Shown here: positions 3,867-25,893 of the stretch, piece after piece | Numbering within the stretch: position 1 is the stretch's first letter | Layout of the letters: each line of letters starts with the position of its first letter | Position numbers and translations under genes: made by a program | Notes under the pieces: generated by a model | Databases searched by the model: none | What the model saw: the letters and a program-made list of their open reading frames with translations, nothing else | Told to the model about the DNA's origin: nothing | Source: an archaeon | GTDB lineage: Archaea > Iainarchaeota > Iainarchaeia > Iainarchaeales > 1-14-0-10-31-34 | Direction: 5' to 3' | Length of the DNA: 32,000 nt | NCBI GenBank assembly: GCA_024277355.1 | Contig: JAJRVL010000009.1 | Span: forward strand, 27,580-59,579

Positions 3867-3885
3867 TTTGCCAATGCATCAACCG

Positions 3886-4282: not shown

Positions 4283-4314
4283 TAAACGTTTCGCCGTTTA
4301 AGCACGATGCACGA
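4283..4314 (-). repeat. 32-nt perfect direct repeat, copy B, abutting the 5' end of tRNA-Ala
   Basis: Identical to 3886-3917. The two copies diverge immediately outside the 32 nt. Confidence 0.85.
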
Positions 4315-4524
4315 CTTTCAGTCGAGCTTGCTCCGCAACAGCTGTCGCGCTCAGCTGGCATGCGTGCAATATCTTTGCTTTTGCTCGATATAGCATCATT
4401 CAGCTTAAATCTTGAGTAAATAATTGCATTAGAGCTTGAAATACAACTTTTATAAAAAAGTTATATGTTTTAAAACTTAGGTCCAATACTTTCCGAAAAA
4501 AATATTGAACCTAAGTTCTTTTTG

Positions 4525-10065: not shown

Positions 10066-11355
10066 TTATTTTGTTATCAGCCATTTCCATAAAGGAATAA
10101 ATGTTATTCCGTGTTCTTTTTTTTCTGTGTTTTTTGTTATTAAAGTAAGTTTTTTGGTTTTCTTTTTTTGTTTTTTTAATTCTTTTAATCCTTTAGTTTC
10201 CCTTTCTTTTATTTTATCAGTGAAAGAAACATTTATTCCCTGAAGAGAATTATCTTCGTTTTTTATTACAAAATCCACTTCGTTTTGGTTTGCCCAATAA
10301 TAAACTTGTTTGTTTTGTCTTTTTAGTTCTAAGAAAACAAGATTTTCAGTTAATTTTCCTTTGTCTTCAGAAAACTTGAATGCAACTGCGTTTCTTAAGC
10401 CATTATCTATTCCATATATTTTTGTTGGTCTTGTTTTTTGTTCTTTTATTGAATAAGAAAAATGATTTAATTCAAAAAACAAGAATGCTTCAAAAAAATG
10501 ACTTAAGTATTCTTTTAGTTGGTCATAAGATAAATCTGTTGCTTCTCTTAATTTTCTTAAGGATGTTTTCCCTGTAATGTTTGTTATTAAATATTTAGCA
10601 AGCTCTTTTGGTTTCTGGCTTTTAATATTAAATCTGTCAACTACATCTTTGAAAATTATGTCTTCAAAATAGTTTGTTAACACTAATCTTTTTTGTTTTT
10701 TTTCTTTAAAAAATATTTCAGGAAACCCGCCTTCATTAATATATTTTTCTAAAGCGTTTTGTATTTTTATTTTATCTTTATTTGAAACAATTCCTTTTTT
10801 TAGTAGTTTTTGTTCTGGTTTTATGCCTGAAAACTGCAGGAATTCCTTAAAACTTAAAGGCATTATTTCAAATGCAACTATTCTCCCTGTAAGCAGTGTT
10901 GAATATTCTTTTTTAAGTAAATGAGAAGAGCTTCCTGAAATAACAAATTTTGCTTCAGTTTTTAAATCATATTTTTTTCTAATCCATCTCTCCCATTTTT
11001 GTTTTTTTTGAACTTCGTCAAAGAAAATAAATGATTTTTTATCTGGATTTATTTTTTCTCTGTACTCTAAATAAATGTCTTCAAGTGAAGTTTCATTTAA
11101 TACTTCGTCTTCAAAATTCACTAAAAGAATGTTTTTTGAATCAACGCCACTTTCAATGAGTTTCTTAATCATTTGATACATTACAGTGCTTTTTCCTGAA
11201 CGCCTTACTCCTGTAATAACTGTTATTTCCTTTAAGTTTACAGTTTTAATTAATTCTTTATATTCAGGTCTTTCAATTCCTGATAATTCTTTCAGTTCTT
11301 CTTTTTTTTTAAACCACCACGGATTCCATTCACTTAAAATATCAATTAAAGTCAT
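10066..11355 (-). CDS. AAA-superfamily ATPase, COG1373 / DUF4143-type (paralog 2)
   Basis: Walker A GVRRSGKST and Walker B IFFDEVQKKQKWE. The track start at 11391 is TTG and would run through the upstream palindrome; the ATG at 11355 (MTLIDILSEWNPWW) is preferred. Confidence 0.75.
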   Translation of the reverse strand: MTLIDILSEWNPWWFKKKEELKELSGIERPEYKELIKTVNLKEITVITGVRRSGKSTVMYQMIKKLIESGVDSKNILLVNFEDEVLNETSLEDIYLEYREKINPDKKSFIFFDEVQKKQKWERWIRKKYDLKTEAKFVISGSSSHLLKKEYSTLLTGRIVAFEIMPLSFKEFLQFSGIKPEQKLLKKGIVSNKDKIKIQNALEKYINEGGFPEIFFKEKKQKRLVLTNYFEDIIFKDVVDRFNIKSQKPKELAKYLITNITGKTSLRKLREATDLSYDQLKEYLSHFFEAFLFFELNHFSYSIKEQKTRPTKIYGIDNGLRNAVAFKFSEDKGKLTENLVFLELKRQNKQVYYWANQNEVDFVIKNEDNSLQGINVSFTDKIKERETKGLKELKKQKKKTKKLTLITKNTEKKEHGITFIPLWKWLITK

Positions 11356-11371
11356 AAAAACACCAATACTT

Positions 11372-11389
11372 GTTACTAAAAATAGTAAC
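11372..11389. promoter_or_regulatory. GTTACT-N6-AGTAAC palindrome 17-34 nt upstream of the ATPase paralog-2 ATG
   Basis: GTTACTAAAAATAGTAAC. The same half-sites recur at 11405-11422 and 9966-9983. It sits where a TATA box for a leaderless or short-leader mRNA would lie. Confidence 0.4.
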
Positions 11390-11404
11390 AAAACCTTAAT
11401 AAAT

Positions 11405-11489: not shown

Positions 11490-11858
11490 TTATATGTATG
11501 TTTCTATTATCTCTTTAATTTTGTTTGCTCTGCGCTGGATTTGTTTGGTTGTTGAAATAGAAATATAAACTCCGTAATCTGCTTGGCTTTTATGGGCTAT
11601 TAAAAATTCGTATGCATTCTGGTATTTCTGGAAATCTTCTTCTAAAAACTTTGATAATTCTTTAAAATAAGTAGTGTCTGAATGTGGTTTGTGTTTTGGT
11701 ATTTTATTCAGGAATTTTTGGCATAATGTGTTGTGGTAGTTAATGGCTGCGTTGATAAACAAGTGTGCTGCTGTATGGTAGTTTTCCTGTTTAAATTGGT
11801 CTTCTGCAGCCTGAAATCTTTCATTTGCTAAGTCAAAATGTTGTTTGAATGTGCTCAA
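11490..11858 (-). CDS. HEPN-domain protein (partner of the adjacent nucleotidyltransferase)
   Basis: About 120-aa all-helical protein with HEPN-like layout (ERFQAAEDQF..., LIAHKSQADYG). It overlaps the upstream MNT gene by 26 nt. TTG start per the track. I did not see a canonical R-x4-6-H motif. Confidence 0.6.
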   Translation of the reverse strand: MSTFKQHFDLANERFQAAEDQFKQENYHTAAHLFINAAINYHNTLCQKFLNKIPKHKPHSDTTYFKELSKFLEEDFQKYQNAYEFLIAHKSQADYGVYISISTTKQIQRRANKIKEIIETYI

Positions 11859-12447
11859 TTAATCTCCTTCCTTTTATTATTTTTCCTTTTCTTAAAATGT
11901 TCTGGATAAACAAGTCTTTTTCAGTCCAGCGCAACTTAATTTCTTTTTTGTCCATGATTACAGGTGAAAACCTTATGCCTGTTTTAGTAGTTGCATTAAC
12001 AAATTCTTCAACAATTTTTTCTTCTAATTTACTGCTTTTTTTTTCTAAGCCGATTAAAATATCAAAGTCTGATTGATGCGAAAAATCTTTTCTGATGCGT
12101 GATCCAAAAGCAATCACTATCTTTATTTTAGAGTTTTTCAAGAGTTTCAAGGATTTAAGTGTTTTAAATAATGGTTTCTGGAAATCACTTGTTTTTTTAA
12201 AGATTTTTTTCAGTTCAGGAAGCAAATAAAATTTTTGGTTGATTTTGATTAATTTGTTTCTGCCTTGGTATTCAATTAACACTAATCCTGTTTTTTCCCA
12301 GTCTTTTATAATACCTGAAACAGTTGCTTTTGGTGTTCCTGTCATTCTCCCTAATTCTGAAATCGAAAAATGACCGGATTTATGTATGAACTTTTCCAGC
12401 ATTAAAATCTTTGACTTTGAATTCATTAATTGTTCCATTATCTGCAT
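11833..12447 (-). CDS. minimal nucleotidyltransferase (MNT) with an N-terminal winged-helix domain
   Basis: NTase signature AFGSRIRKDFSHQSDFDILI (GS-x9-11-DxD). N-terminal wHTH-like SISELGRMTGTPKATVSGIIKDWEKTGLV. The track start at 12525 is TTG; the ATG at 12447 (MQIMEQL) is more plausible, but the start is uncertain. Confidence 0.7.
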   Translation of the reverse strand: MQIMEQLMNSKSKILMLEKFIHKSGHFSISELGRMTGTPKATVSGIIKDWEKTGLVLIEYQGRNKLIKINQKFYLLPELKKIFKKTSDFQKPLFKTLKSLKLLKNSKIKIVIAFGSRIRKDFSHQSDFDILIGLEKKSSKLEEKIVEEFVNATTKTGIRFSPVIMDKKEIKLRWTEKDLFIQNILRKGKIIKGRRLIEHIQTTF

Positions 12448-12607
12448 TAAGACACCATTCAATAAACTGAACATATGTTCAGTATATAGAACATATTTTA
12501 AATGAATTGTCTTAATTTGCAGCAATCAGAATTTAATTTACTTTTGCTTTTCTTTAAATAAGTTTTTCTTAAATTAATATATTTAGAAAAGTTTAGCAGA
12601 TGAAATA

Positions 12608-13777
12608 ATGACTTTGTATTCTCATTCCAGAATTGAATCTTTTTTTCAGTGTCCTTTAAAATTTAAGTTTCAGTACATTGAAAAAATTAAAGTTCCTTTT
12701 CATCAAAGCATTGAAGCTTTTATGGGTTCAAGAGTGCATGAAACTTTTGAATATTTATATAAATTAGTTCAGCATACTAAAATTCCTTTACAGCAGGAAT
12801 TAATTGACTTTTATAAAAAAAAATGGAAACAAAACTGGAATAATAATATTGTTATTGTAAAACAAGGTTTAACTAAAGAAAATTATTTTAATTTAGGAAT
12901 TAAATGCATTAAAAATTATTATCAAAAAAATCATCCTTTTAATGATGGTTTAACTATTGGAATTGAAAAAAGAATTTTAATTGATTTAGATGGAACAGGT
13001 AAATATAAAGTTCAGGGTTTTATTGACCGTTTAGTTGAAAAAAAACCAGGTTTCTTTGAAATTCATGACTATAAAACTGTTTCTAATCTGCCTGACCAAA
13101 TAAAAGCAGAAGAAGACAGACAATTAGCTTTGTATGCTATTGGATTAGAACAAGAATTTAATGAAGTAAACGAAGTTGAATTAATCTGGCATTTTGTTGT
13201 TTTTGGAAAAACAGCTAAAAGCAAAAGAACTAAACAACAATTAACTGAATTAAAAAAAGAAACTATTTCCCGCATTAAAGAAATTGAATCCTGTAATAAA
13301 TTTAATTCAAATCCTTCTATTTTATGTAATTGGTGTAAATTTCAATGTATTTGCCCTGAATTTAAGCACCAAAAAGAAACAGAAAATCTTCCAGCAAACA
13401 AATATTTAAATGAAGCAGGAGTTGTTTTAGCAAACAAATTTATTGAATTAAAAAACAAGGAAACAGAAATTAAAACAGAATTGTCTTTAGTTAAAGAAGC
13501 TGTTATTGCTTTTGCAAAAGAAAAAAATTATTCAGTTATTAAAGGAAGCAACGGCAAACTTTCAATAACACAAACTAAATCCTTAAAATTACCAAAAAAA
13601 GACTCTAAGGAATATGAAAAACTTGAATTACTTTTACAAAAAATCAACGCCTTAAATGAAACAAGTTCTTTAGACCAAACAAAAATCAAAGAATTCTTAA
13701 AGAAAAAAGAAAACAAACAAATAGAAAAGCTTTTGGAGGAAAATGAAATGACGACGGTGAGGGTTGGGAAGAAGTAA
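12608..13777 (+). CDS. Cas4/RecB-like PD-(D/E)XK nuclease with a 4-Cys cluster and a Lys/Glu-rich C-terminal extension
   Basis: N-terminal Cys (FFQCPLKF), a nuclease core FIDRL...FEIHDYKT (D...E-x-K type) and a C-terminal CNWCKFQCICPE, which together give the Cas4/AddB Fe-S pattern C...CxxCxxxxxC. The last ~130 aa look like coiled coil. Confidence 0.7.
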   Translation: MTLYSHSRIESFFQCPLKFKFQYIEKIKVPFHQSIEAFMGSRVHETFEYLYKLVQHTKIPLQQELIDFYKKKWKQNWNNNIVIVKQGLTKENYFNLGIKCIKNYYQKNHPFNDGLTIGIEKRILIDLDGTGKYKVQGFIDRLVEKKPGFFEIHDYKTVSNLPDQIKAEEDRQLALYAIGLEQEFNEVNEVELIWHFVVFGKTAKSKRTKQQLTELKKETISRIKEIESCNKFNSNPSILCNWCKFQCICPEFKHQKETENLPANKYLNEAGVVLANKFIELKNKETEIKTELSLVKEAVIAFAKEKNYSVIKGSNGKLSITQTKSLKLPKKDSKEYEKLELLLQKINALNETSSLDQTKIKEFLKKKENKQIEKLLEENEMTTVRVGKK

Positions 13778-13880: not shown

Positions 13881-15851
13881 TTAGTTATTATTTTCTTCAA
13901 CATCATTAAATTTATTCAACAAATTTATTTTTTCAGAACCAATTTTTGTATTTTTTTCAATTAAATCAAGAATCTTTTCTGTTCTTTTTAATAAAAATCC
14001 TTCATAGTTTCTTTTGTTTACAAGAAGACTATACATTTCTTTATCAATTAAGTGAGTATTTAAAAATTCTTCAAAGTTTTTATTAGATTCGAATTCAGGG
14101 AAATATTCATCTGGGTTTTTTTTCTTTATTTCTTGATTTAATTCGCTACTAATAATTGCTATATTAGCAATATTATTTAATAAAAAATCGGCTTTTTCTT
14201 GACCTAATTCTTTTCTAAGGCTTTTTGCAGCATCTGAATTAAATGGGATTATGTGGTGTTTGTTATTTTTTGTATATGCTCCAAAATATTCCATTAAATT
14301 TATTTCAGAATTAACATTAAAATCTACAGGTTTTAAAGAATTTAATAACAAAATAAGAGAAGAATATAAATTATTTTGATTGTTGTATCCTGCATCAATT
14401 AAATATTTTTGATTGTATTCATAGTTTTTGTTAAATATTCCAAAATTTCTATTGTTTTTTATCTGTTCTACAAATGATTCTGATCCTTTATTAAATTCAT
14501 TCATGTCTGTTTCAATTCCTTGTAATTGGGCTCCTGGATATCTATTAAATATTAAAGTATTCCAAAACCATTTGTTAATTGATTCGAAGTAATTATTTTG
14601 ACTAAGTGCAGAATATTTGTTAGAACTTATTACATAAGTTAAAAAAGACAAAATTTTATTATCAGTGTATTTTACATCTAAAGATTTAATATTTAATTCA
14701 TTTGATAAATATTTCAATAATTGCTCAAAAAGTTTTCTAAATTCTAAAAGATTATCTTGAATATATTGTGAATTTAATTCATATATGTGATCTTTTTGAA
14801 GCCCGCTTTTTTTGAGATTATGTCTATTATGGATGATTGAAATTAATCTAAGAGTAGTTGTAGTATCAATATTATAATATGAATCGTTTTCGTAATTTAA
14901 AGAAATTTGAGGATCTAACTTTTCTGATTCTAAATAAGAGCGCCTGTAAAGAATCTTTTGGATTGCATTTTTTAGATTAAATGTTTTTTTATCATTTTTA
15001 TATATAATTGTTTTATATGTTTTTGCAACCATTATATCAAAAATATCAAGTTTTACATTTTGAGTATTTATTCTTTCAAAAATAGTTACTACTTTATCTA
15101 AATTGCTATCTTCAACAATTTGATGAATCTTATAAGACTTTATTATCTCTGTAAATTTTTCTAAGATTTTTTTATTTTCATCAAGAATTCTATTTTTTTT
15201 TTCAATAAAAATAATTGTATCTTCTTTATTTAAGTCTTCAGGAACTTCTTCAGTTATCTTTTTTCGTTCTTTTTCAATAATCTTATCTGGAAATTTATGT
15301 TTTTCATCAAATATTTGAGATAAATCTATAAATCTAAATGGATTAAGTTTATTTGTTTCTCTTAATTTTTTAATAGTTATTTTTTCGTTATTCATTTCAA
15401 TTTTCTGAGTTTCGCTAAGAAAAACATTTGTTTCAATATCGAAATAAATCTTGTAAGGTTTTGATTTTTTATTTTTAGAACGGTATAATTCTTTTCCTTT
15501 TAAAACACCATAAATTGTTGTCAACCTTTGTTGGCCATCTAAAATATAATATAATTCTTTTGAACTGTTATTATTTTCGCTTATTTCTTTATCTCCAACA
15601 TTCCGATAAGCTAAATTTTCTTTAGATTTCCATAACAATAAATTTCCAATAGTATATCCTTTGAAAATACTATCAAATAATAAAGTAAATTTTTCAATAT
15701 TCCAAACAAAATCTCTTTGAAATTCAGGAATAACCCAATGCCCTTCTTCAATTTTATTTAATATTTTTGAAATAGATATTGGAGGATAAAAGTCTTTATC
15801 TAGATTCTTTTCAATTCTACTGTGTTCTTGCATAATTTTTGATTTGTCCAT
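13881..15851 (-). CDS. GmrSD-like type IV restriction enzyme candidate (DUF262 N-terminal + DUF1524/His-Me-finger C-terminal)
   Basis: DUF262 motifs IPEFQRDFVW and YILDGQQRLTTI. C-terminal NNKHHIIPFNS...NNIANIAIISSELNQEI. The track ORF runs to 16028, but that extension overlaps the Zn-ribbon gene. The ATG at 15851 (MDKSKIMQEH) has GAGAGG upstream. Confidence 0.75.
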   Translation of the reverse strand: MDKSKIMQEHSRIEKNLDKDFYPPISISKILNKIEEGHWVIPEFQRDFVWNIEKFTLLFDSIFKGYTIGNLLLWKSKENLAYRNVGDKEISENNNSSKELYYILDGQQRLTTIYGVLKGKELYRSKNKKSKPYKIYFDIETNVFLSETQKIEMNNEKITIKKLRETNKLNPFRFIDLSQIFDEKHKFPDKIIEKERKKITEEVPEDLNKEDTIIFIEKKNRILDENKKILEKFTEIIKSYKIHQIVEDSNLDKVVTIFERINTQNVKLDIFDIMVAKTYKTIIYKNDKKTFNLKNAIQKILYRRSYLESEKLDPQISLNYENDSYYNIDTTTTLRLISIIHNRHNLKKSGLQKDHIYELNSQYIQDNLLEFRKLFEQLLKYLSNELNIKSLDVKYTDNKILSFLTYVISSNKYSALSQNNYFESINKWFWNTLIFNRYPGAQLQGIETDMNEFNKGSESFVEQIKNNRNFGIFNKNYEYNQKYLIDAGYNNQNNLYSSLILLLNSLKPVDFNVNSEINLMEYFGAYTKNNKHHIIPFNSDAAKSLRKELGQEKADFLLNNIANIAIISSELNQEIKKKNPDEYFPEFESNKNFEEFLNTHLIDKEMYSLLVNKRNYEGFLLKRTEKILDLIEKNTKIGSEKINLLNKFNDVEENNN

Positions 15852-15864
15852 TTTATAACGCCTC

Positions 15865-16092
15865 TCAATCCAAATCAGCTGGTTTGAATTTATATCCACA
15901 ATCTTTGCAAGTTCCTTCAACTTTTTCTTTTCTTCTGTCAGTTCTTGAACTAGAAATTCCAGTACTTCCCTGAACTCTATAAGTTTGAGATGATTCAGGA
16001 AACCATAAAACATCATTTTTTGTTCCACATTTTGGGCAATTTAAATCAATTTTCTCTGATTGCTGTCCTCTGGTAAATAATTCATAACTCAT
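15865..16092 (-). CDS. 75-aa zinc-ribbon miniprotein, function unknown
   Basis: CPKCG-x33-CKDCG gives four Cys in two knuckles. The stop is 13 nt before the GmrSD-like ATG, and the start is 22-31 nt after the upstream gene's stop. The track start at 16101 is GTG; an ATG lies at 16092. Confidence 0.55.
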   Translation of the reverse strand: MSYELFTRGQQSEKIDLNCPKCGTKNDVLWFPESSQTYRVQGSTGISSSRTDRRKEKVEGTCKDCGYKFKPADLD

Positions 16093-16123
16093 TTTACTCA
16101 CTTAAATAATATCTATAGAAAGT

Positions 16124-18307
16124 CTAAATAGTTTTTCGCAACTCCTGAGATGTGGGCTGAATGCCGTCAACAAGCTTGTCAAGCTTTTCCTTAATTAAAT
16201 AAAAATCAAAATAACCATTATTTACTCGCAAAGCATATTTGATAATTTTGTAGAATTTATTCCTGTTATTTTTCAATACATCTGGATTCGAACTTAAATA
16301 AGCAGTAAGTTTTAGTAAATTGATTCTATCTATACAAGACACCCATATTTTTGATTTAATTTTAAATGCTTTATTTTTAGTTTTTTTTAATTGTTCTGAA
16401 AGAGATTCTTTAGCTTTATCAAAATCATCTTTGTCAGTCTCATAGGTTAAAAAAACATAATATTTTAATCCGCCGTGCTTCTTTACTTTAAAATTTCTTT
16501 CAAAATTATTCATATATTTTATATCTTTAGATATTTCTGTAGGAAATTTTATTCTCATTTCCTTTTTTTCTTTTATGTAACTACTTAACTTTGTCTTGGT
16601 ATATCTTTTTGCATCCCATAAAACAAATTGTGTAGTTCCCTGCCCTTCAAATGCAAATGCCCCATCCGCAAGTTTTGGACCGCCAAGTTTTTGATTATGT
16701 GGAAACATAAAATTTAATATTGCATAAATACTGTTTTCAAATTCTTCGGGGGTAGGGGGACTGGGAGCTTTTACAATAGTTATGGCGGCTCTGAAAGATT
16801 CATACATTAGATCGGAACTTTTTTCTATTGCTTCTTGAATGAGTGAAATTATTTTATCACTTTTTTTTCCTGCAAGCCAATCAATAAATTGTAATCCTTC
16901 AACATTACTTAATCCAACCATGTTTGAATTGAGCTCTCCTTTTAATTTTATTATTATTAACGGAATTCCTAATAGTTTTAATTTTTCAAATTTTTCTTTT
17001 CCAATACTGTTCTTACTAAAATATAAATAGAAATATTTTCCTCCTTTTTCAATTCTAATTGCAAAATCGTTTTTGTTTAAATTAAGTGCTTTTGCCAAAT
17101 ATTTAGTTGTTTTTATTTTCTCTTTTTTTAGCAAATTAATTGTTTGAAATTCAATCTGTTTTTTATTTGGTTTAATAGAATAAGAAATAGTAAAAGATCT
17201 TCTGGCTGGGTTTCCACATTCACAAATTTTTTGCTTTATAGGTTTAATTACATCACAGGAAGGATTAGAACACCAATATAATTTATTCTGTTTTTTCCTT
17301 AGAAGTTTGACTTTTATCATTTCATTAAGTTTTGTGCCTACTTGAGGAAGATTAAAATAATATGGCTCAACATCTTGACGATAAATCACATTTGTTAATA
17401 TTTCATTAAAATCTAAATTGTCAAATATTATTTGCCCTTTATTAATTATATTCCTAAATTCTTTTGGCAAAGCATATCTTGAACCAAAATAAGTAATTTT
17501 TTTTCCTAATTTTGATTTATTAAACATTAATTTGGCTTGTCCAGAATTCCCAATAGACGTCTTTACTTGGTTTAAGGTATCTAAAGAAAAAGTAACAATG
17601 CCATCTTTTTCCCAATCTAAAGCTTGTTGCAAAGCATTTCCAGTCTTAGATTTAATTATTACTGACTCGCCAGAACCTGGAGCCTTTGTTCTTTTTAGAT
17701 CAATAAGGTAAAATTTTTGGTTTACTTTATTGAAAATATTCTTTATCTTCTCTTTATCTATTTTGATTGGTTCGTGTTTTGGCAACCATATAATATTTTT
17801 CACTTTTAGCCACCATAGAATCAATTCCTTTATTTTGTGGCTTATATTAAAAAATTCAACAATAATGTTTTCTTTATCAAAAACAATACAAAAAAAATTT
17901 TTACTCAAATTTTTATAACTTTTAATTGTTCTTGTAGTTAAACCAGTTCCAGGTTCCACGTATCCAATGATTACAATTATTTTTCTACCATGTTTTTTTG
18001 CATAAATGACGGCAAGTTCTCTTTTACTTTTAAATAATTTTTTATTATAACTCAAAACAATTCTTTTGAACAAATTTTTGATTTTCTTTTCTCCTGTAAG
18101 AATTTTATTACATTGAATAGTTTCAGTGCTATTCCCCTTAGAAATTTCTTTTAAACAATAAGCTGCAATAATGGTTTTTTGATTTATTTTTCCATCTTTT
18201 GAAATTAATTCTAGTTCTGTCTTATAATCTTCTTTAAATTGATCTAGATCATCACCATAAGTTCTCTGCAATCCGATATAAGAAAAGCTGTCAGTTAATT
18301 TCGCCAT
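16124..18307 (-). CDS. 727-aa multidomain protein: unknown N-terminal ~500 aa with an internal Zn ribbon, plus a C-terminal FokI-type PD-(D/E)XK cleavage domain
   Basis: C-terminal EFENSIYAILNFMFPHNQKLGGPKLADGAFAFEGQGTTQFVLWDAKRY aligns with the FokI cleavage domain as I recall it (ILEMKVMEFFMKVYGYRGKHLGGSRKPDGAIYTVGSPIDYGVIVDTKAY). The D-x16-D-x-K spacing is identical (D codons at 16664-16666 and 16613-16615). Zn ribbon CSNPSC-x11-CEC at about 17.21-17.28 kb. Confidence 0.65.
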   Translation of the reverse strand: MAKLTDSFSYIGLQRTYGDDLDQFKEDYKTELELISKDGKINQKTIIAAYCLKEISKGNSTETIQCNKILTGEKKIKNLFKRIVLSYNKKLFKSKRELAVIYAKKHGRKIIVIIGYVEPGTGLTTRTIKSYKNLSKNFFCIVFDKENIIVEFFNISHKIKELILWWLKVKNIIWLPKHEPIKIDKEKIKNIFNKVNQKFYLIDLKRTKAPGSGESVIIKSKTGNALQQALDWEKDGIVTFSLDTLNQVKTSIGNSGQAKLMFNKSKLGKKITYFGSRYALPKEFRNIINKGQIIFDNLDFNEILTNVIYRQDVEPYYFNLPQVGTKLNEMIKVKLLRKKQNKLYWCSNPSCDVIKPIKQKICECGNPARRSFTISYSIKPNKKQIEFQTINLLKKEKIKTTKYLAKALNLNKNDFAIRIEKGGKYFYLYFSKNSIGKEKFEKLKLLGIPLIIIKLKGELNSNMVGLSNVEGLQFIDWLAGKKSDKIISLIQEAIEKSSDLMYESFRAAITIVKAPSPPTPEEFENSIYAILNFMFPHNQKLGGPKLADGAFAFEGQGTTQFVLWDAKRYTKTKLSSYIKEKKEMRIKFPTEISKDIKYMNNFERNFKVKKHGGLKYYVFLTYETDKDDFDKAKESLSEQLKKTKNKAFKIKSKIWVSCIDRINLLKLTAYLSSNPDVLKNNRNKFYKIIKYALRVNNGYFDFYLIKEKLDKLVDGIQPTSQELRKTI

Positions 18308-18352: not shown

Positions 18353-19495
18353 TCAATTGACAAATCCTCCTTTAAACGCTTTCTGCATCAAACAATCAAA
18401 TAAAATATTAATTTCTTCTGTTGATTGGCTTTGTTTGTATTTTAAAGTCATAAGAGAATCAAAAAACAATGAAAATTTTTTTTGTAAATCCAAAGGAGGA
18501 GTTACAATCTCAAGGTTCCTTAAAATTGTAAGATTAAGCCCGCTCCTAAAACCATCTCCTGTAATATTTCTTAGTTCGTTATATCTTGTTTTTAAATTGA
18601 CGTGCAAATATTCAGAAGTAATTTTAGAATAATCTGGAGAAATGGATGCAACGGACTGATTACTTGTGGTGTTCACTTTTAGAATTCCTGTAGTGCCCCT
18701 TGTTTTTCCTTGCCCATTTAATGCAATTACCACATCTCCTATTTTATACAATTTAGCATTAGAATTCTTTAAACCTAATTTTGTAATTTTATTAGGAACA
18801 TTAATTATGTAATCTGATTTAATATTTCCTGATTTCATCCAATTTATTGTTCCTTTTTCAAAATATTCTATAAATTTCTTATTAGGGGTTCCCCCCATAT
18901 CAAGTTTAGCAATATCTTTTAATTTTAGTTTAGGCCATTGTTTCTCATTTTTAGCAGGCCCTCCAAATATTTCATGAAAGACATTTTTTAAAATTTTATT
19001 TGTTTCTTCATTTACTTGATTTCTTTTTTCTTTCAGCTTTTCAGCTTGTTCAAGAATAGAAACAATTTGTTTTTGAATGGGCATTGGAGGAACAATTAAT
19101 TTTTTTCTTTTTAGAAACCGATAATGTCTACTATACCCTCCAGATTCAAGAGGCAAATATTTTAGTTGATAATACATAAATTTAGCGTTCAATAAATCCT
19201 TTTTAGGGAGTAAAACTTTAGTGCCATCAGCTCCAACACAGAAGCTGAAATCAGCATATTTAATTCTTTTAGTATGGTCTCCAAATATTACTACAGGATT
19301 GCCATAAGGATATAATTTACTTTTATCATCACAATACCCTGCAATCTGTTTTTCCCCTTGATCTATTATTGGAAATTTTCCTTTTTCTTTAAATTCTGAC
19401 TTTTTGATTTTTATAGCAGATGGAACGCTATCAGTCTCTAAGCAATCTTTGAATTCTTTTTCTTCCCATTTTTTTGACAATTTTTGATTATTCAT
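18353..19495 (-). CDS. hsdS: type I restriction-modification specificity subunit HsdS
   Basis: Two target-recognition halves are separated by a conserved helical spacer (QKQIVSILEQAEKLKEKRNQVNEETNKILKNVFHEIFG), with a matching C-terminal helix (LQKKFSLFFDSL...LFDCLMQKAFKG). The ATG at 19495 (MNNQKLSKKWEEKEF) has GGAGA 6 nt upstream; the track start at 19540 is less likely. Confidence 0.85.
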   Translation of the reverse strand: MNNQKLSKKWEEKEFKDCLETDSVPSAIKIKKSEFKEKGKFPIIDQGEKQIAGYCDDKSKLYPYGNPVVIFGDHTKRIKYADFSFCVGADGTKVLLPKKDLLNAKFMYYQLKYLPLESGGYSRHYRFLKRKKLIVPPMPIQKQIVSILEQAEKLKEKRNQVNEETNKILKNVFHEIFGGPAKNEKQWPKLKLKDIAKLDMGGTPNKKFIEYFEKGTINWMKSGNIKSDYIINVPNKITKLGLKNSNAKLYKIGDVVIALNGQGKTRGTTGILKVNTTSNQSVASISPDYSKITSEYLHVNLKTRYNELRNITGDGFRSGLNLTILRNLEIVTPPLDLQKKFSLFFDSLMTLKYKQSQSTEEINILFDCLMQKAFKGGFVN

Positions 19496-19976
19496 TATTA
19501 TTCTCCTTAAAGTTTTTTTTCTCATATTCCAGAATTGCATCTATTGTGAAAGGCATAGTAGTAGTTCTTTTCCCATATTTAGGGGAAACTGATTCTCTAT
19601 TTATTTGCTGTTGAAATCCAACTATTTGTGACTTGAATAGTTGAGCTTCTTCAAAAGGAAGATTTTTGTCTACAAATTTTTTTAAGTATTCAATGCCCTT
19701 TTCAATTTTCTCTTTTTGACTAAGTTCTTTTCCAATATTTTTTGTTTCTTCTTTCTCACAGTAATGTATATGGAACTGTTTGTGAAGAGAGTGTTCTTTT
19801 GGGTGTTTACTCTCTTCTAGTCTAATAATTGGTTTGTGATTTCTATTTTCCTGAAGTTCATCAAGAAGAATAACAAAATCCTCTTCTCCAGAATTGCTTT
19901 TTTCTATGTTAAATCGTAACTGATATTTTTTAGTAGAGGTGTTTATTACAAATTCTCTTTTATTTTTATTAATCAT
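19488..19976 (-). CDS. hypothetical 162-aa protein embedded between hsdM and hsdS
   Basis: ORF with no motif I recognise (Lys/Glu/His-rich, HKQFHIHYCEKEE). Its last codons overlap the hsdS start (ATGAATAA at 19488-19495). Confidence 0.55.
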   Translation of the reverse strand: MINKNKREFVINTSTKKYQLRFNIEKSNSGEEDFVILLDELQENRNHKPIIRLEESKHPKEHSLHKQFHIHYCEKEETKNIGKELSQKEKIEKGIEYLKKFVDKNLPFEEAQLFKSQIVGFQQQINRESVSPKYGKRTTTMPFTIDAILEYEKKNFKENNNE

Positions 19977-20005
19977 TTTATTATTCCCTTAAATTCTTGA
20001 AAATT

Positions 20006-20665
20006 TCATTTTTGTTCCACGCCTATAAGTTTAATATATATTTCGTTAATGTTGTAATTATCTTTTTTTTGTAATTTAAAAGATATTTGATATGGCCTAA
20101 AATTATCTCCACTAAAAAGTAAATTTAACTCATATTTTCCAGGCAATAATGTTTCAGGTATCCCTATAGGAATTGAATGGTACTTTTCAAAGTGAATTTT
20201 TTTATCCGTATTAACAGCTACTGCCACATCAATGAATTCTTGCTCTCCAATACCAATTGATAGCCTTTCCGCGTTTCGTTGATCAAGTATTAACTCTGGT
20301 CTACTGGCCCACTTTAATGGAAAGCCTTCGTAATCATTTAATACTTCACTTTCCTTAACAATGTTAAATATTTGACATCTACAGTTGATTGCAGGGTTTT
20401 TTCCATTATTTTTAACTTTCATTCTTAGAAATGTTCCTAATGGTTTTATCTCGTTAACAACTGAAGCACTCTTAAGTTTTAAATTTCCAATGGCAATATT
20501 TTCTTTTCTAAATGGAACTTTTTCTTTATACTCGAATTCAAGTTTCGGTTTTTTCCAGAATGGAAGTATAAAATCTTTCAAAAGGGCAATTAATATTGCA
20601 ACAAATGAGATTATTATTGCCCAGATTTCTATTTGAATACCAACTATTAATATTTTTTCAGCCAT
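20006..20665 (-). CDS. hypothetical 219-aa single-pass membrane protein embedded between hsdM and hsdS
   Basis: N-terminal TM helix ILIVGIQIEIWAIIISFVAILIALL followed by a ~185-aa soluble domain with no recognisable motif. The ATG at 20665 directly abuts the hsdM stop TAG (20666-20668). Confidence 0.6.
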   Translation of the reverse strand: MAEKILIVGIQIEIWAIIISFVAILIALLKDFILPFWKKPKLEFEYKEKVPFRKENIAIGNLKLKSASVVNEIKPLGTFLRMKVKNNGKNPAINCRCQIFNIVKESEVLNDYEGFPLKWASRPELILDQRNAERLSIGIGEQEFIDVAVAVNTDKKIHFEKYHSIPIGIPETLLPGKYELNLLFSGDNFRPYQISFKLQKKDNYNINEIYIKLIGVEQK

Positions 20666-22156
20666 CTAAACAAGCCTCTTCAATTCTTCTAATTGATTAG
20701 TTATCTCTTTTTCAAGCTTCAATACTTTTTCAATTATTTTTTTTGGTGGTTCGTATTTTATTTCTTCAAATTTAATTTCTTGATAGCGTGAAATGCTTAG
20801 ATTGTATTCATTTTCTTTTATTTTTTTGAATGGAACTTTAATACTGTTTTCTGAAACTTCTTTTGACTTAAATTTTTTTGTTATGTCTGGAATGTCTCCT
20901 TTCCCATCCTTAAATTGTCTTTTATCGTCTAAACTAAAACCATCATCTTTCATTTCATAAAACCAAACGGAATCTGTTTGGCCTCCTTTAATAAAAATTA
21001 GAACTGCTGTTCCTACTCCAGAATAAGGTTTGAATACCCCTGAAGGCATTGAAATAACTGCTTCTAACTGGCATTTTTCTAATAAAAGTTTTCTGGCTGA
21101 CTTGTGTGCATTACTGCTTCCAAACAACACTCCATTTGGAACAATTATAGCTGCTCTTCCCCCTTGTTCAAGCAAATTATAAAACAATTCAATAAACAAT
21201 AATTCTGTTTTAGTAGTTCCTACTTTGAATATATCATTAATGTCGCTTTTGTCAATTGAACCAGTAAAAGGAGGATTAGCTAACACTACATCAAATTTTT
21301 TGCTTAAATCAAAATTTTTGGATAAAGAGTCAGCGTATTTAATGTTTGGGTTTTCAATTCCATGCAAAATCATATTCATTAAAGCAATTCTAACCATTGT
21401 AGTGTCAACATCAAAACCAAAAAAAGTATTCCGCTTTAAAAAACTCCAAGCTTTCTTGTTAGTGCCAATTTTATCTCCAATCAAATTATGAGGAGTTCCA
21501 TCTTCATCATATTTAATTGAATCCTTTGAAGTATTTTTTTCTAAAATATGATAATAACAATTTATTAGAAAACCAGAAGTTCCACATGCAGGATCGCAAA
21601 CAGTTTCTCCAATTTTAGGATTAACTAACTCAACCATCATTCTAATAATATGTCTTGGAGTTCTAAACTGTCCGTTTTTTCCAGAAGTTTGAATTTCTTT
21701 CAATAAGTATTCATAAATGTCTCCTAAAGTGTCTCCATTAGCAGTTAAAGCAGAATCATATAATTCATCAATAATGCTGACTGCTTCCTGCAACAAAGAA
21801 GGTTTTGGAATAATAAAAACAGCATCCTTCATGTTTTCAGAAAAAAGAGTGTCTCCTCCTCTCCTAATATTTTTAATGAAAGGAAAAACTTTATCTCTTA
21901 CGTGTTGAATCATTTGCTCTGAACTATAATGCTTCCAATTACTCCAAAGGCAATCTTCATTTCCTTCAAACACTGACTCAAATTTTTCTTTCCTTGCAAT
22001 AGCTTGATTTTTGTGCATTTCATCCAAGTCTTCTAATCTCTTCATGAAAATTAAATAAGAAATTTGTTCAATAGCAGTCAAAGGGTTAGCTATTCCTCCA
22101 GCCCAAAATTTATCCCATAACTGGCTAATTTTAGATTTAAGTTCAGCGTTTAACAT
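20666..22156 (-). CDS. hsdM: type I restriction-modification N6-adenine DNA methyltransferase HsdM
   Basis: SAM motif VCDPACGTSGFL and catalytic motif VLANPPFTGS, with an HsdM-type N-terminal helical domain. GGAGGC lies 8 nt upstream of the ATG. Confidence 0.9.
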   Translation of the reverse strand: MLNAELKSKISQLWDKFWAGGIANPLTAIEQISYLIFMKRLEDLDEMHKNQAIARKEKFESVFEGNEDCLWSNWKHYSSEQMIQHVRDKVFPFIKNIRRGGDTLFSENMKDAVFIIPKPSLLQEAVSIIDELYDSALTANGDTLGDIYEYLLKEIQTSGKNGQFRTPRHIIRMMVELVNPKIGETVCDPACGTSGFLINCYYHILEKNTSKDSIKYDEDGTPHNLIGDKIGTNKKAWSFLKRNTFFGFDVDTTMVRIALMNMILHGIENPNIKYADSLSKNFDLSKKFDVVLANPPFTGSIDKSDINDIFKVGTTKTELLFIELFYNLLEQGGRAAIIVPNGVLFGSSNAHKSARKLLLEKCQLEAVISMPSGVFKPYSGVGTAVLIFIKGGQTDSVWFYEMKDDGFSLDDKRQFKDGKGDIPDITKKFKSKEVSENSIKVPFKKIKENEYNLSISRYQEIKFEEIKYEPPKKIIEKVLKLEKEITNQLEELKRLV

Positions 22157-22539
22157 TATTTTTTGCCTCCTTTAATTTTCTTTATATTAGTAGGAACAAG
22201 AACAGAGTCTTTTCTTGTTTTTTTAATGTAAGAATTTCTTGTATTCAAAACAGAATTCATTTGACTTAAAAGGTTTTCAAGAAACAAAGGAGTTAACTTT
22301 TCTCCTACACTAATTTTTTCTCCGTCATCAAACTCAACACTCCAAGAAAAACAATCATTATTTTTGTCGTAAACAAATTTATTTACTCCAGCTTTATTTA
22401 ATGGAATTAATTTAGAAACATTGCTTTCAATTAAATTTTTAATAAAAAGAGAAGTAGTTATTTTTTCTTTTTCACAGTAATGCTTTAATTGAGAAAAAGT
22501 TAAGCGATCAATTTTAGAGCTAACAGTTATGTAATCCAT
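22156..22539 (-). CDS. 127-aa protein with an N-terminal ribbon-helix-helix (CopG-like) fold; candidate regulator of the hsdM block
   Basis: ITVSSKIDRLTFSQLKHYCEKEKITTSLFIKNLIES fits a strand-helix-helix pattern. The stop overlaps the hsdM ATG (TAATG). The C-terminal ~80 aa are unknown. Confidence 0.5.
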   Translation of the reverse strand: MDYITVSSKIDRLTFSQLKHYCEKEKITTSLFIKNLIESNVSKLIPLNKAGVNKFVYDKNNDCFSWSVEFDDGEKISVGEKLTPLFLENLLSQMNSVLNTRNSYIKKTRKDSVLVPTNIKKIKGGKK

Positions 22540-22596: not shown

Positions 22597-25410
22597 TTAT
22601 TTGCTTTTTGTAGTTTCTTTTTCCAAACCATTGCATAAAGCCACAATTTCTTTTAATTCAGAATCATTAAACAATGGCTTTGGAGCCTTTCCAATATTAG
22701 TAAAAGGTTCAGCAAACAAATCAGAATACTCAATATGATCCTTTTTAGCAAAAACCGTTTGAAGAGTTCGCATAAACAACAATTTATTTGAATTCAATTC
22801 AATCTGCTTTTCAACCATAAACTTCCTAAAAGCTTCAGCAACCATTTTTTCAGAATCAGGAAACTCATACAACCCCAAAACATTCTTAATGAATTCAACT
22901 AAAGCACCATTACTTTGACGATAAGCTTTCTGCAAAACTTCTTCAGTAATATACAATTCAGGGCTATTAAGGATTTCCTCAAGCTTAACCAAATCTTTTT
23001 CATCTAATACTTCATTTTTTTTAATTTTCTTAATTGTAGGGTGAGTTTCAGCTAACTCTTTAATTCTCTTTTCAACTAAATCCTTATACTCTTTAACATA
23101 AATTTCTTTTCCTTCAGGACCAAACTCAATTTTTTCTCTTGATTCAGCTTCAACAACATCATCCATGTCAATAACAATTGGTTCTCTTGGATTCTTTCTC
23201 TTTAACTTCATTAATTCAGCAAACGCTTCTTGTAACTTAAAAGCATCAGAAACAGAAACCTTCTCCCAAAAATCTTTTCTTTTAGCTTTATTCAAAAAAG
23301 TTTCTTTATCTTTTACTTTCTTTAAAGTAACAGGCAAACACTGCAAATCAAAACCAATTCTCTCCTGCAATCTTTCCAATTTCTTTTTATCTTTCTCTAA
23401 AACAGCTAACTTTAATTGCTCTGTCTTCAAAATAAAAGAATAAACATCATAATTAACATCAGTCTTAAACTTCATCAAAGGAGAAATTTTCTTCATTAAA
23501 AAATCAAAATGTTTTAATCCAACCTGACTCCAAAAATCTTTATGCAAAGCTTTCTCTATGTTTTCAGTATGCTCTCTAATAGAAATAGAATCCATCGGCA
23601 AAGATTTAATTTCTTTATAAATTTCACTCCTAACTATTTCAACTTCTTCCTTCATTCCGTTCTTTTCAAATAACTCCAACAAATTCAGCTTTAACTTAAA
23701 TATTTTAACTGGCAAAGCCTCACTTGCCTTTGATTCCCTTCCTTCAGGTTCAACTTTAAACCGCTTAAAATTACCCCAAAAATCCAAAATCTTAAAATAC
23801 TCTTTATTCATTTGCTTACATAAAACATTATCGCTACCACAATCAGGAGAACACTTTCTTGTACCACGACCAATCATCTGCCAAAACCTAATCTTAGAAA
23901 AAATTGGTTTAGCAAAAACAAGATTTTGAATAGGCTCAACATCCACGCCAGTAGAAAGCATATCAACAGTAATGGCAATTCTAGGCCACTTCTCATACTC
24001 AAATTCTTTCAATAATTCATCTCTTCTTTCAATCTGATAATCAATAATTTGAGCTAACTTCCCTTTATACTGGGGATAAAGTTTATTGAAAGCCTCCCAA
24101 ATTCTTTTAGCATGAACATGAGTTAAAGCAAAAACAATAGTCTTGCCAGGCAAAGTTCCAGTTTCATCATATTCAGCTTCAGCCATAAACTCTCTAACTA
24201 AAGCTTCATTAGTGCCAACAGGGGCAACCTCTTTTTCAATCTTTGAACCATCCCAATTTAAATCATCCAAAGTCAAACCTTCTTCTAACAAACGCTTTCT
24301 TTCACTTGCAGGAATATCTTCAGAAGTAATACCTTTAACTTGAAAATGAGTTTGAGCATTATAAACTTCAAATGGAATCAAATGTCCTTCTTCAACTGCT
24401 GGCCAATATTCATACAAAAAAGTTGGAACACCAAACTCACACTCAAAAAACCTAAAAGTATCTCTATCAACTAAATCAGCAGGAGTAGCTGTTAAGCCAA
24501 CTTGAATAGAATCAAAATAAGTGAAAATTTCCTTAAACTTATTAAAAATACTTCTATGGGATTCATCAGAAATAATTAAATCAAAATAACCAGGAGAAAT
24601 ACTTTGATAACAAGAAATCAAAGTCTGCAAAGTAGAAACATATAATCGAGCAGACTTATCAATTTCTCCAGAGAAAATAGTTGAGCGAGATTCCTCAGGC
24701 AAAAACTTCTTGAAACCTTTATTTAAAGCTTGATCCCTTAAAGCCCTTCTATCAGTCAAAAACAAAACCTTCTTAATCCAATGAGCCTTCAAAAGAACAT
24801 CAATCAAAGCCACAGAAGTTCGAGTTTTACCAGTGCCAGTGGCCATAACTAACAAAAACTTTTTTTTACCTTGTTCCAATCCTTCAAGAATTCTTTTAAC
24901 TGCTTCAATCTGATAAGGCCTATCAATAATATCTTGCCTAATCTCCATTACAGACAATGGTTTCTTATTTTCATTCAAAAACCTAACTTTCTCTAAATCA
25001 TCTTGAGAATAAAAACCCCTAATCTGCTTTGGAACGCCATCAACTTTATTCCAAAACCAAATTTCAACCCCGTTAGTTAAAAAAATAAAAACAGGTTTTC
25101 TAGTTTGCTTTTCAATGTCATCAGCATAATCTTGAGCTTGTTTTTGACCAACAATAGGATCTCTAGAAAATTTTTTGGCTTCAATAACTGCAAGTGGATT
25201 ATTTTGTTTATCTAAAAGAAGATAATCTGCAAATTGACTTTCTTCTTTATTATTCCAAGTATCTTTATTGATTTTATAATCTTGAACTTTAAAATTAGAT
25301 TGTTTAGTATCAACTTCTTCAATAATCATTGAATTATCAAATTTCCAACCTTGTTCTTTAAGAGCTACATCAATTTTTTCCTTTCTAGTTCTAAACTCGT
25401 TTAAATCCAT
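22597..25410 (-). CDS. hsdR: type I restriction enzyme R subunit HsdR (nuclease + SF2 helicase/translocase)
   Basis: N-terminal PD-(D/E)XK ADYLLLDKQNNPLAVIEAKK. Helicase motif I LVMATGTGKTRT, motif II IISDESHRS, motif III GLTATP, motif VI QMIGRGTR. Long helical C-terminal region. Confidence 0.9.
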   Translation of the reverse strand: MDLNEFRTRKEKIDVALKEQGWKFDNSMIIEEVDTKQSNFKVQDYKINKDTWNNKEESQFADYLLLDKQNNPLAVIEAKKFSRDPIVGQKQAQDYADDIEKQTRKPVFIFLTNGVEIWFWNKVDGVPKQIRGFYSQDDLEKVRFLNENKKPLSVMEIRQDIIDRPYQIEAVKRILEGLEQGKKKFLLVMATGTGKTRTSVALIDVLLKAHWIKKVLFLTDRRALRDQALNKGFKKFLPEESRSTIFSGEIDKSARLYVSTLQTLISCYQSISPGYFDLIISDESHRSIFNKFKEIFTYFDSIQVGLTATPADLVDRDTFRFFECEFGVPTFLYEYWPAVEEGHLIPFEVYNAQTHFQVKGITSEDIPASERKRLLEEGLTLDDLNWDGSKIEKEVAPVGTNEALVREFMAEAEYDETGTLPGKTIVFALTHVHAKRIWEAFNKLYPQYKGKLAQIIDYQIERRDELLKEFEYEKWPRIAITVDMLSTGVDVEPIQNLVFAKPIFSKIRFWQMIGRGTRKCSPDCGSDNVLCKQMNKEYFKILDFWGNFKRFKVEPEGRESKASEALPVKIFKLKLNLLELFEKNGMKEEVEIVRSEIYKEIKSLPMDSISIREHTENIEKALHKDFWSQVGLKHFDFLMKKISPLMKFKTDVNYDVYSFILKTEQLKLAVLEKDKKKLERLQERIGFDLQCLPVTLKKVKDKETFLNKAKRKDFWEKVSVSDAFKLQEAFAELMKLKRKNPREPIVIDMDDVVEAESREKIEFGPEGKEIYVKEYKDLVEKRIKELAETHPTIKKIKKNEVLDEKDLVKLEEILNSPELYITEEVLQKAYRQSNGALVEFIKNVLGLYEFPDSEKMVAEAFRKFMVEKQIELNSNKLLFMRTLQTVFAKKDHIEYSDLFAEPFTNIGKAPKPLFNDSELKEIVALCNGLEKETTKSK

Positions 25411-25497: not shown

Positions 25498-25893
25498 ATG
25501 GATTACCTGAAGAGAAAAAATATTCCTGCAAAAATACAACTTGAAGTTTGGAATAGAGATAACTGGCATTGCCGTTACTGTGACAAACCAATTTTTTATA
25601 CTCTTTCATTAAAAATTCTTGATAAAATAAATCCAAAACATTCTTACTTTCATCCAAACGGTAAAACTGGAGAAATACTGCCTTTATTTATTTATTCTTG
25701 GGCAAGTGTTGACCATGTTAAACCATTCTCAAAACAAGGATCTGACGAAAAAGAGAACTATGTTTCTGCCTGTTGGGAATGCAATATGAAATATGGAAAC
25801 ATGGAAGTTGGACAAGGAAAGCCAGAACCAAAAGGAATAATTGAGAGTAATTGGGATGGGTTTTATGGATTGTATTTTAAATTGAAAAAATAA
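25498..25893 (+). CDS. HNH endonuclease-domain protein (131 aa)
   Basis: CRYCDKPI ... DHVKPFSKQGSDEKENYVSACWECNMKYGN, matching the CxxC...DH..P...N...CxxCN HNH pattern. Confidence 0.75.
   Translation: MDYLKRKNIPAKIQLEVWNRDNWHCRYCDKPIFYTLSLKILDKINPKHSYFHPNGKTGEILPLFIYSWASVDHVKPFSKQGSDEKENYVSACWECNMKYGNMEVGQGKPEPKGIIESNWDGFYGLYFKLKK

Follow-up and report, generated by a model that had tools for sequence, protein, structure and literature searches.

Two independent gene families at the hsdM-hsdS junction of an archaeal Type I restriction-modification operon

We describe two genes, ORF219 and ORF162 (open reading frames, ORFs, for proteins of 219 and 162 amino acids), that lie between hsdM and hsdS of a Type I restriction-modification (R-M) operon in an archaeon of the Iainarchaeales (GenBank assembly GCA_024277355.1, contig JAJRVL010000009.1, positions 27,580 to 59,579). 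This whole stretch of 32,000 nucleotides is called the window below, and positions are counted from its first letter. The ORF219 and ORF162 families are independent of each other: close relatives of the operon carry one gene without the other at the same junction. The ORF219 family, predicted to consist of single-pass membrane proteins with a cytoplasmic beta-sandwich, is linked to Type I R-M loci repeatedly, in archaea and in bacteria. ORF162 is rare, and most likely a small embedded effector.

Two gene families share one junction

On the minus strand, the genes of the operon follow one another in the order hsdR, orf127, hsdM, ORF219, ORF162, hsdS (Table 1). Judged by the Pfam domains of its products, the host operon is confirmed as a complete Type I R-M system of the EcoEI-like kind. 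An earlier reading of the window, made from the letters alone and called here the sequence-only reading, had described tight junctions between these genes, and all of them were found as described. The hsdM stop codon TAG (20666-20668) is immediately abutted by the ORF219 ATG (20665), a 29-nt gap separates ORF219 from ORF162, and the end of ORF162 (GAA TAA) overlaps the hsdS ATG at 19495 within ATGAATAA. A Shine-Dalgarno-like AAGGAGA lies 6 nt upstream of that ATG, within the ORF162 coding sequence. The mechanical list of ORFs runs hsdS up to 19540; HsdS homologues from three other loci (L042, L029 and L028) align from the 19495 start by tblastn. The view that both ORFs lie inside a genuine Type I operon and are coupled to it in translation is supported.

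Two loci separate the genes from each other. The nearest ORF219 locus (L011), with an ORF219 67% identical to that of the window, reads hsdM-ORF219-hsdS, with 4-nt overlaps on both sides and no ORF162. The nearest relative of the whole operon (L042) reads hsdR-orf127-hsdM-ORF162 homologue-hsdS, and has no ORF219; its HsdR, HsdM and orf127 counterparts are respectively 79%, 83% and 68% identical to those of the window. The hsdM-hsdS junction is therefore a slot for ORF219, for ORF162 or for both. The sequence-only reading had taken the pair for a single cassette made of a membrane protein and a small protein. This was not borne out, and a two-gene cassette is rejected, as the two families never occur together outside the window. 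In the window, ORF162 occupies the site where ORF219 normally overlaps hsdS, and the 29-nt spacer, standing in place of the ATGA overlap found in ten out of ten related loci, is consistent with an insertion of ORF162 there.

Divergence of ORF219 and ORF162 from their homologues is concentrated at third codon positions (0.45-0.51, versus 0.15-0.25 at second positions), and hsdM behaves likewise. By this codon-level measure, both ORFs are real genes under purifying selection. The ORF162 homologue of L042 is 53% identical to the window copy versus 83% for the flanking hsdM, so ORF162 evolves faster than its host operon gene.

Linkage of ORF219 to Type I loci recurs

Genome and metagenome scans, in which loci were selected on ORF219, yielded 39 loci with an ORF219 homologue, of which 36, the window included, are distinct. 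In 14 of these 36 close loci, the homologue lies inside a Type I locus. One whole clade of the family tree is ordered hsdR-orf127-like-[variable genes]-ORF219-hsdS-[variable genes]-hsdM, and there, in ten out of ten cases, the ORF219 stop and the hsdS start overlap by the four nucleotides ATGA (...AAAATGA). This coupling is kept across protein identities of 39-93%. A second group with hsd linkage (M-ORF219-S) is made up of the window and L011, and falls among free-standing members of the family.

Pairwise ORF219 identities track those of HsdR and HsdM (Spearman ~0.7). A different situation is met in two loci whose ORF219 proteins are 93% identical (L031, 6829-7455; L032, 7950-8576) versus 65% for the flanking HsdR, 69% for HsdM and 30% for HsdS, which points to a recent exchange of ORF219 between diverged Type I operons. 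In L005 (1861-14190; 54% guanine plus cytosine (GC), binned as Chromatiales) the locus is heavily loaded with embedded defence, in the order hsdS-DUF6119-SIR2-HerA-ORF219-RhuM-RhuM-hsdR.

Genomic context was also looked up for six remote, profile-level relatives. Three of these bacterial or metagenomic genes overlap hsdS or hsdR: P0035 (Ignavibacteriales) has an 11-nt overlap with hsdS in the locus hsdM-KilA-N-X-hsdS-NTase-Fic-hsdR, where HsdR is of the T1RH type; P0044 overlaps by 4 nt the end of a T1RH-type hsdR; and P0058 overlaps by 8 nt the end of hsdS. A remote fusion member, P0037, follows an N6_N4 methylase and lies beside TrbC/TrbL conjugation genes. Taken together, close and remote loci show the linkage in archaea and bacteria alike, in several operon orders and with HsdR proteins of two families. 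The family thus shows at least six independent Type I-linked arrangements, and its linkage to Type I R-M recurs. The recurrence at hsd genes that the sequence-only reading had proposed to survey for both genes holds for ORF219, and for ORF162 in one of its two relatives.

Other genes are embedded in the sister hsd operons of DPANN archaea. These variable genes encode mostly small proteins with 2-5 predicted transmembrane helices; they adjoin ORF219 or sit between hsdS and hsdM, and 4-nt overlaps with ORF219 or with hsdS/hsdM are frequent (L009, 6929-7732; L028, 7648-7953 and 9769-10592; L032, 10106-10531; L033, 338-1017 and 2818-3854; L036, 3335-3955). This DPANN Type I lineage is unusually rich in membrane genes inside its operons. 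In L010 (7926-8186, binned as Omnitrophota), only an 86-aa fragment is found, matching ORF219 residues 94-123; it is probably a decayed ORF219 copy.

Topology and predicted fold of ORF219

Among 5.8 billion proteins, 17 close homologues of ORF219 were retrieved, with E values down to 1e-88. The homologues belong to Nanoarchaeota, Woesearchaeota and other DPANN metagenome bins. The family alignment (A1) has 30 invariant columns, including NCRCQ, GFPLKWASRPE, GERL, ExEFxD and SGDNF. Its profile matched 583 cluster representatives at E≤1e-3, and 105 at E≤1e-10, among 1.84 billion. Residues P40, R81, N86, G88, A92, C95, L117, W119, D146, N188 and P191 are invariant throughout this superfamily. Neither ORF219 nor ORF162 has any match in Pfam, PADLOC, NCBIfam or PHROGs, and the unclassified status that the sequence-only reading had given to both proteins stands. 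With the PADLOC v2 models, HEC and PDC included, zero matches were obtained at E≤1 for ORF219, ORF162 and eight relatives, and a search of solved structures by sequence gave no match for either family.

As predicted from the letters alone, ORF219 starts with one transmembrane helix. This hydrophobic segment covers residues 10-37 approximately, and its part 10-28 scores 2.49 on the Kyte-Doolittle scale. The following domain, given as ~185 aa in that first reading, is predicted to be an all-beta domain of ~180 aa and has no motif match in the libraries. An N-terminal transmembrane segment is present in 126 out of 133 superfamily members. Over the 133 members, lysine plus arginine residues flanking it average 0.49 on the N side versus 3.17 on the C side; following the positive-inside rule, this bias predicts an N-out/C-in orientation, and hence a cytoplasmic location for the ORF219 domain. 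In some fusion variants a signal peptide and one further domain precede the helix, and in others additional transmembrane helices follow the domain; both layouts agree with a cytoplasmic domain. In ten long superfamily members no informative Pfam domain was found, the extra parts being transmembrane or extracellular segments.

The AlphaFold2 model of ORF219, computed on alignment A1, is a confident one (predicted local distance difference test, pLDDT, 86.8; predicted template-modelling score, pTM, 0.78). It shows a helix at residues 12-37 followed by 11 strands, and the family-wide motif R-x-x-V-x-N-x-G-x-x-x-A-x-x-C forms a strand-turn-strand. Its Foldseek neighbours in the PDB are generic: CARDB domains (2kl6, 3idu), fibronectin type III (FnIII)-like domains of GH3, ApaG-like proteins and RhoGDI, all with E>1e-3 and TM-scores of 0.2-0.33. 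No PDB fold match was found at E≤1e-3, nor any match to the Pfam CARDB family. From the motif and these neighbours, the fold is predicted to be an immunoglobulin (Ig)/CARDB-like beta-sandwich, with a predicted location in the cytoplasm.

When the model was compared with viral protein models, the best Foldseek match was an uncharacterised protein of Haloarcula hispanica pleomorphic virus 4 (E=6.7e-8, TMq 0.55). Further matches were a "transmembrane protein" of Rhizobium phage RHEph01 and several phage proteins that are annotated as transmembrane or uncharacterised. At the sequence level, no homologue of ORF219 was found in IMG/VR or among PLSDB plasmids, and INPHARED phages gave chance-level matches only. 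A prophage or plasmid origin is rejected as the main explanation, since no sequence homologue in these collections rises above chance.

ORF162 and its two relatives

The sequence-only reading had called ORF162 rich in Lys, Glu and His. This holds for Lys (14.8%) and Glu (14.2%); His, at 3.7%, was overstated, although its residues are clustered at positions 47-71. In the same set of 5.8 billion proteins, only two homologues were found, P0019 and P0168, with 52-54% identity. The alignment of the three (A3) displays a conserved motif, R-x-[DE]-E-S-x-H-P...H-x-H. The AlphaFold2 model built from these three sequences is of low confidence (pLDDT 66.7); six antiparallel strands are followed by three helices. 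Foldseek found nothing in the PDB below E=0.29. Structure prediction, which the sequence-only reading had proposed for both proteins, gave a confident model with generic neighbours for ORF219, and for ORF162 a low-confidence model with no fold match.

For both homologues, the top Pfam match is DUF7718 (PF24839), over the N-terminal sheet (residues 10-67), with 21.0 bits (E 3e-4) for P0019 and 20.0 bits (E 6e-4) for P0168, below the gathering threshold of 25 bits. ORF162 of the window itself does not match DUF7718. DUF6516 (PF20126) was unmatched at E≤10 by ORF162, P0019 and P0168, in a search where HMMER filters may hide very weak matches. The family has nothing in phages, and among plasmids a single chance-level match (P0168, E=8).

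The family member found in L003/L004 is free-standing. It has no hsd genes around it, and its neighbours are an HNH nuclease, a four-transmembrane protein, a Type II R-M pair, ParB and Cas4-like nucleases. Upstream of ORF162, the window has ORF219 and L042 has hsdM; L003/L004 alone have a small gene (111 aa) there. Neither hsd-embedded locus, in the window or in L042, has an antitoxin-like gene adjacent to ORF162.

The small gene orf127 is conserved immediately behind hsdR throughout this Type I lineage. It has homologues there in L028 (7257-7664), L029 (3143-3517), L030, L036 and L042 (6128-6523), and only its N-terminal domain of ~60 aa follows hsdR in L009, L027, L031 and L033. Weak matches to ribbon-helix-helix families were obtained with the L028 homologue (ParG, E=0.0017) and the L029 homologue (RelB antitoxin, E=1.6e-4); the window copy itself matched none of these families. 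Its sequence suggests that orf127 may be an operon controller with a ribbon-helix-helix N-terminus. A dedicated antitoxin function for orf127 towards ORF162 is rejected, as orf127 homologues occur in hsd loci that have no ORF162.

Possible roles of the embedded genes

The reading that we prefer, and hold tentatively, is that ORF219 is a membrane-level accessory working with an HsdS-containing complex, and ORF162 an embedded cargo. The hsdM-hsdS junction would then hold two unrelated genes, acquired independently. The ORF219 family would be a recurrent Type I R-M accessory of DPANN archaea and bacteria, usually coupled translationally to hsdS. Its members would work with the HsdS-containing complex on the inner side of the membrane, and could be anchors or adaptors through which methylase and restriction activity is brought to the site where foreign DNA enters. 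ORF162 would be a rare cargo gene inserted between ORF219 and hsdS; its context makes it most likely a small defence or toxin-type effector, co-transcribed with the system, for which the structural model is of low confidence. A physical partnership of ORF219 with HsdS, and any defence role, are what we infer. A more specific version of this reading seems unlikely: ORF219 would be a dedicated fourth component of some Type I systems, a membrane anchor that binds the HsdS complex, possibly with the multi-transmembrane proteins of the sister operons, so that restriction takes place at DNA entry, and ORF162 of the window would be a TumE-like latent toxin silenced by the M2S complex of HsdM and HsdS, in the manner of PrrC.

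Several observations weigh against an accessory role of ORF219. In at least ten close loci (L015, L002, L008, L016, L038, L019, L039, L001, L006 and L026), several kb of surrounding sequence contain no hsd gene, and two of the six remote relatives (P0034 and P0062) likewise have no R-M gene in their neighbourhood. Among such copies, the homologue of L016 adjoins DUF1828 and an AAA_15 ATPase, that of L038 is 2 kb from a DNA methylase, and that of L001 is 3.6 kb from a Type IIG enzyme. The homologue of L015 lies within a purine-biosynthesis operon, that of L002 adjoins a MoxR ATPase, and that of L052 a Ser/Thr kinase. The defence setting supposed by the sequence-only reading thus fits a part of the family, a substantial minority of ORF219 homologues standing alone, as in these last three loci. 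The family can therefore work without an adjacent R-M system, and conversely the nearly identical R-M system of L042 does without ORF219. With only about six independent embeddings, adjacency to hsdS in particular, as opposed to hsd genes in general, is suggestive and not statistically compelling, and the loci behind these counts were selected on ORF219 itself. A generic beta-sandwich with no PDB match at E≤1e-3 points to no activity or enzymatic family. As for ORF162, its proposed role is drawn from its context.

It is possible, though doubtful, that ORF219 is an autonomous defence gene acting at the membrane, for instance in entry or superinfection exclusion. The embedding would then serve only to co-regulate and co-transfer it, and Hsd subunits would not have to touch it. 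The free-standing copies in many contexts speak for it, as do the methylase and conjugation genes adjoining P0037, the viral-model matches, which are proteins with a transmembrane segment and a beta-sandwich, and the movement of ORF219 between systems seen in L031 and L032. The guilt-by-embedding precedent (bioRxiv 10.1101/2024.01.29.577857) applies as well. However, with some ten ORF219 residues predicted outside the cell, the protein cannot mask a surface receptor. No PADLOC model matches it, it has no sequence homologues in the viral, phage and plasmid collections, and about half of the judged ORF219 loci are Type I-linked, far above the figures of Payne et al. for most autonomous systems. 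A housekeeping explanation, in which the two genes are unrelated hitchhikers, a housekeeping membrane protein and an ORFan inserted where a mobile R-M locus, in a compact genome, offers permissive operon junctions, strikes us as improbable. It would account for the purine-biosynthesis and other housekeeping neighbours of L015, L002 and L052, for the faster evolution of ORF162, and for L042 and L011, whose R-M systems do without one gene or the other. It accounts poorly for a Type I linkage that arose in at least six independent arrangements, with two HsdR families and in both prokaryotic domains, for an ATGA coupling to hsdS conserved over such a range of protein identity, and for purifying selection on both ORFs.

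The sequence-only reading had thought of a guard or abortive-infection module. In this case ORF162, ORF219 or both would be latent toxic effectors, held in check by M2S or by the complex that also includes HsdR (R2M2S), and set free once a virus blocks restriction, like PrrC in EcoprrI. We regard this as quite unlikely, and as most plausible for ORF162. The position inside the operon is the same as that of prrC (PMC3874165), ORF162 has no antitoxin-like neighbour in its hsd loci and carries a conserved motif with His residues, its homologues have sub-threshold matches to DUF7718, and its predicted sheet and helices resemble the description of TumE/DUF6516 (PMC10584680). Nevertheless, for both proteins the searches gave no match to PrrC, RloC, an ABC-ATPase, HEPN or a toxin model, and a single transmembrane helix with an Ig-like domain is not a recognised killing module. 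The likeness of ORF162 to TumE is tentative; Pfam DUF6516 is unmatched at the threshold given above, and the ORF162 model, besides its low confidence, has no fold match.

The operon and its surroundings

Table 1. Features of the hsd operon, in window coordinates.
Feature	Position	Strand	Description
hsdR	22597..25410	-	937 aa, EcoEI-like Type I restriction subunit; Pfam HSDR_N, ResIII 1.6e-39, Helicase_C, EcoEI_R_C 8.9e-21
orf127	22156..22539	-	small protein directly after hsdR; window copy without family match
hsdM	20666..22156	-	496 aa, N6-adenine methyltransferase subunit; Pfam N6_Mtase PF02384 1.6e-67, HsdM_N PF12161 3.3e-16
ORF219	20006..20665	-	single-pass membrane protein with Ig/CARDB-like beta-sandwich (predicted)
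ORF219 transmembrane helix, ~residues 10-37	20555..20638	-	followed by the family-invariant juxtamembrane motif LKDFILP
Spacer ORF219/ORF162, 29 nt	19977..20005	-	sole non-overlapping junction in the hsdM-to-hsdS stretch
ORF162	19488..19976	-	rare Lys/Glu-rich soluble protein (predicted)
ORF162 stop/hsdS start overlap ATGAATAA	19488..19495	-	8 nt; read from sequence
hsdS	18353..19495	-	380 aa from the ATG at 19495; Pfam Methylase_S PF01420 5.2e-29, two stretches corresponding to two target-recognition domains

The hsd operon is located inside a defence island, at ~8.6-27 kb of the window. The island also contains two AAA_14/DUF4143 ATPases, a MarR-nucleotidyltransferase, a PD-(D/E)XK nuclease, a GmrSD/HEC-05-like enzyme, a 727-aa protein, an HNH nuclease and a transmembrane-plus-winged-helix protein. 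At its edge, the two paralogous AAA_14/DUF4143 ATPases stand in tandem (8596-9858 and 10066-11391, both minus strand). They are followed by the MarR-nucleotidyltransferase (11833-12525), which has a small partner ORF (11490-11858), and by the PD-(D/E)XK/DUF2800 nuclease (12608-13777).

Directly downstream of the hsd operon lies the GmrSD-family (DUF262) protein (13881-16028, minus strand), which matches PADLOC HEC-05 (BrxU-like). Its annotated GTG start is overlapped by a 78-aa ORF with two CxxC pairs (15865-16101, minus strand), and because of this overlap the true start of GmrSD may be further downstream. Between hsdS and the GmrSD gene, the 727-aa protein (16124-18307, minus strand) has no family match in any library. 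It contains a zinc-ribbon-like CxxC...CxC stretch and a motif, LWDAKRY, that recalls PD-(D/E)XK nucleases, and from these features it may be another restriction-type enzyme.

On the other side, beside hsdR, a 131-aa HNH nuclease (25498-25893, plus strand) is 72% identical to an HNH gene of L003 (8807-9211), the contig that also bears the free-standing ORF162 homologue. The presence of both genes on L003 suggests that mobile defence genes are drawn from a common pool.

The window also contains a complete archaeal ribosomal RNA (rRNA) operon (864-6011, minus strand), ~2.5 kb away from where the island starts, with 16S at 4526-6011, tRNA-Ala at 4209-4282 and 23S at 864-3857. Its GC content is 38-45%, versus 23-30% in the rest of the window. 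The rRNA operon and the base composition identify the host as an AT-rich archaeon.

Comparison with known systems

The embedding of defence genes in Type I operons is already known, through PrrC, RloC, TgvAB and the guilt-by-embedding approach, and the genes so embedded are, as a rule, defence genes that share the strand of the operon (Payne et al., bioRxiv 10.1101/2024.01.29.577857; TgvAB, PMC11411939; PrrC, PMC3874165). What is new here is an unnamed and widespread family of proteins, membrane-anchored beta-sandwiches by prediction, that accompanies hsdS almost constantly in a single archaeal Type I lineage and is met again in several bacterial phyla. Also new is a junction that swaps its cargo between close relatives. 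Our literature searches found neither a named family nor a description of a conserved membrane-anchored protein travelling with hsdS.

If ORF219 does partner with the enzyme, Type I systems would acquire a defined membrane address, and with it a handle on where restriction meets incoming DNA. If it is autonomous, its 583 profile matches, none of them annotated, would make up a new candidate defence family of archaea and bacteria. To our knowledge, few defence systems have been recognised in DPANN archaea besides R-M and CRISPR. Whatever the role of ORF219, the hsdM-hsdS junction, occupied in close relatives by one of the two genes or by both, constitutes a clean natural experiment on the entry of cargo into R-M operons.

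The predicted all-beta sandwich of ORF219, and its motif RxxVxNxGxxxAxxC, recall CARDB and Ig-like (E-set) domains. CARDB domains are typically extracellular, whereas the ORF219 domain is predicted to be cytoplasmic and membrane-anchored. Membrane-associated defence that acts where DNA enters is exemplified by ZorAB of Zorya and KwaA of Kiwa, whose membrane components are multi-pass proteins or motors. Membrane association has also been reported for EcoKI. The concept proposed for ORF219 is alike, in that a membrane part would couple a cytoplasmic machine targeting nucleic acids to the envelope; there is no homology, and ORF219 is single-pass and Ig-like.

The TumE/DUF6516 toxin, which targets translation, is described as a seven-stranded sheet plus two helices, with no PDB match (PMC10584680). 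ORF162, in its low-confidence model, has an antiparallel sheet followed by helices, and it is ~50 aa longer than a typical TumE. TumE is bicistronic with an upstream antitoxin that neutralises its toxicity, whereas the hsd loci of ORF162 have no upstream antitoxin gene.

PrrC of EcoprrI (prrABD, a Type IC locus), like the RloC-type genes, offers the same arrangement as here: a non-Hsd gene is set into a Type I hsd operon, runs in its direction and would be expressed along with it. The proteins differ. PrrC and RloC are soluble anticodon nucleases of the ABC-ATPase type, whereas ORF219 is a predicted membrane-anchored beta-sandwich, and ORF162 is small and without an ATPase domain. The ABC-ATPase and anticodon-nuclease domains of PrrC/RloC were not found in either protein (Pfam, PADLOC and NCBIfam, at E≤0.1-1), and sizes and predicted folds are incompatible. 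ORF219, unlike these nucleases, also occurs outside R-M loci.

Finally, same-strand unknown genes interrupt hsdR, hsdS and hsdM in TgvAB of the V. cholerae island VPI-2, in the Campylobacter rlo genes and in the HEC and PDC candidates of PADLOC. The loci studied here share with them the hsdR-x-hsdS-x-hsdM layout with variable inserts. Unlike such freely swapping cargo, ORF219 is constant among the variable inserts, and keeps a fixed place 5' of hsdS.

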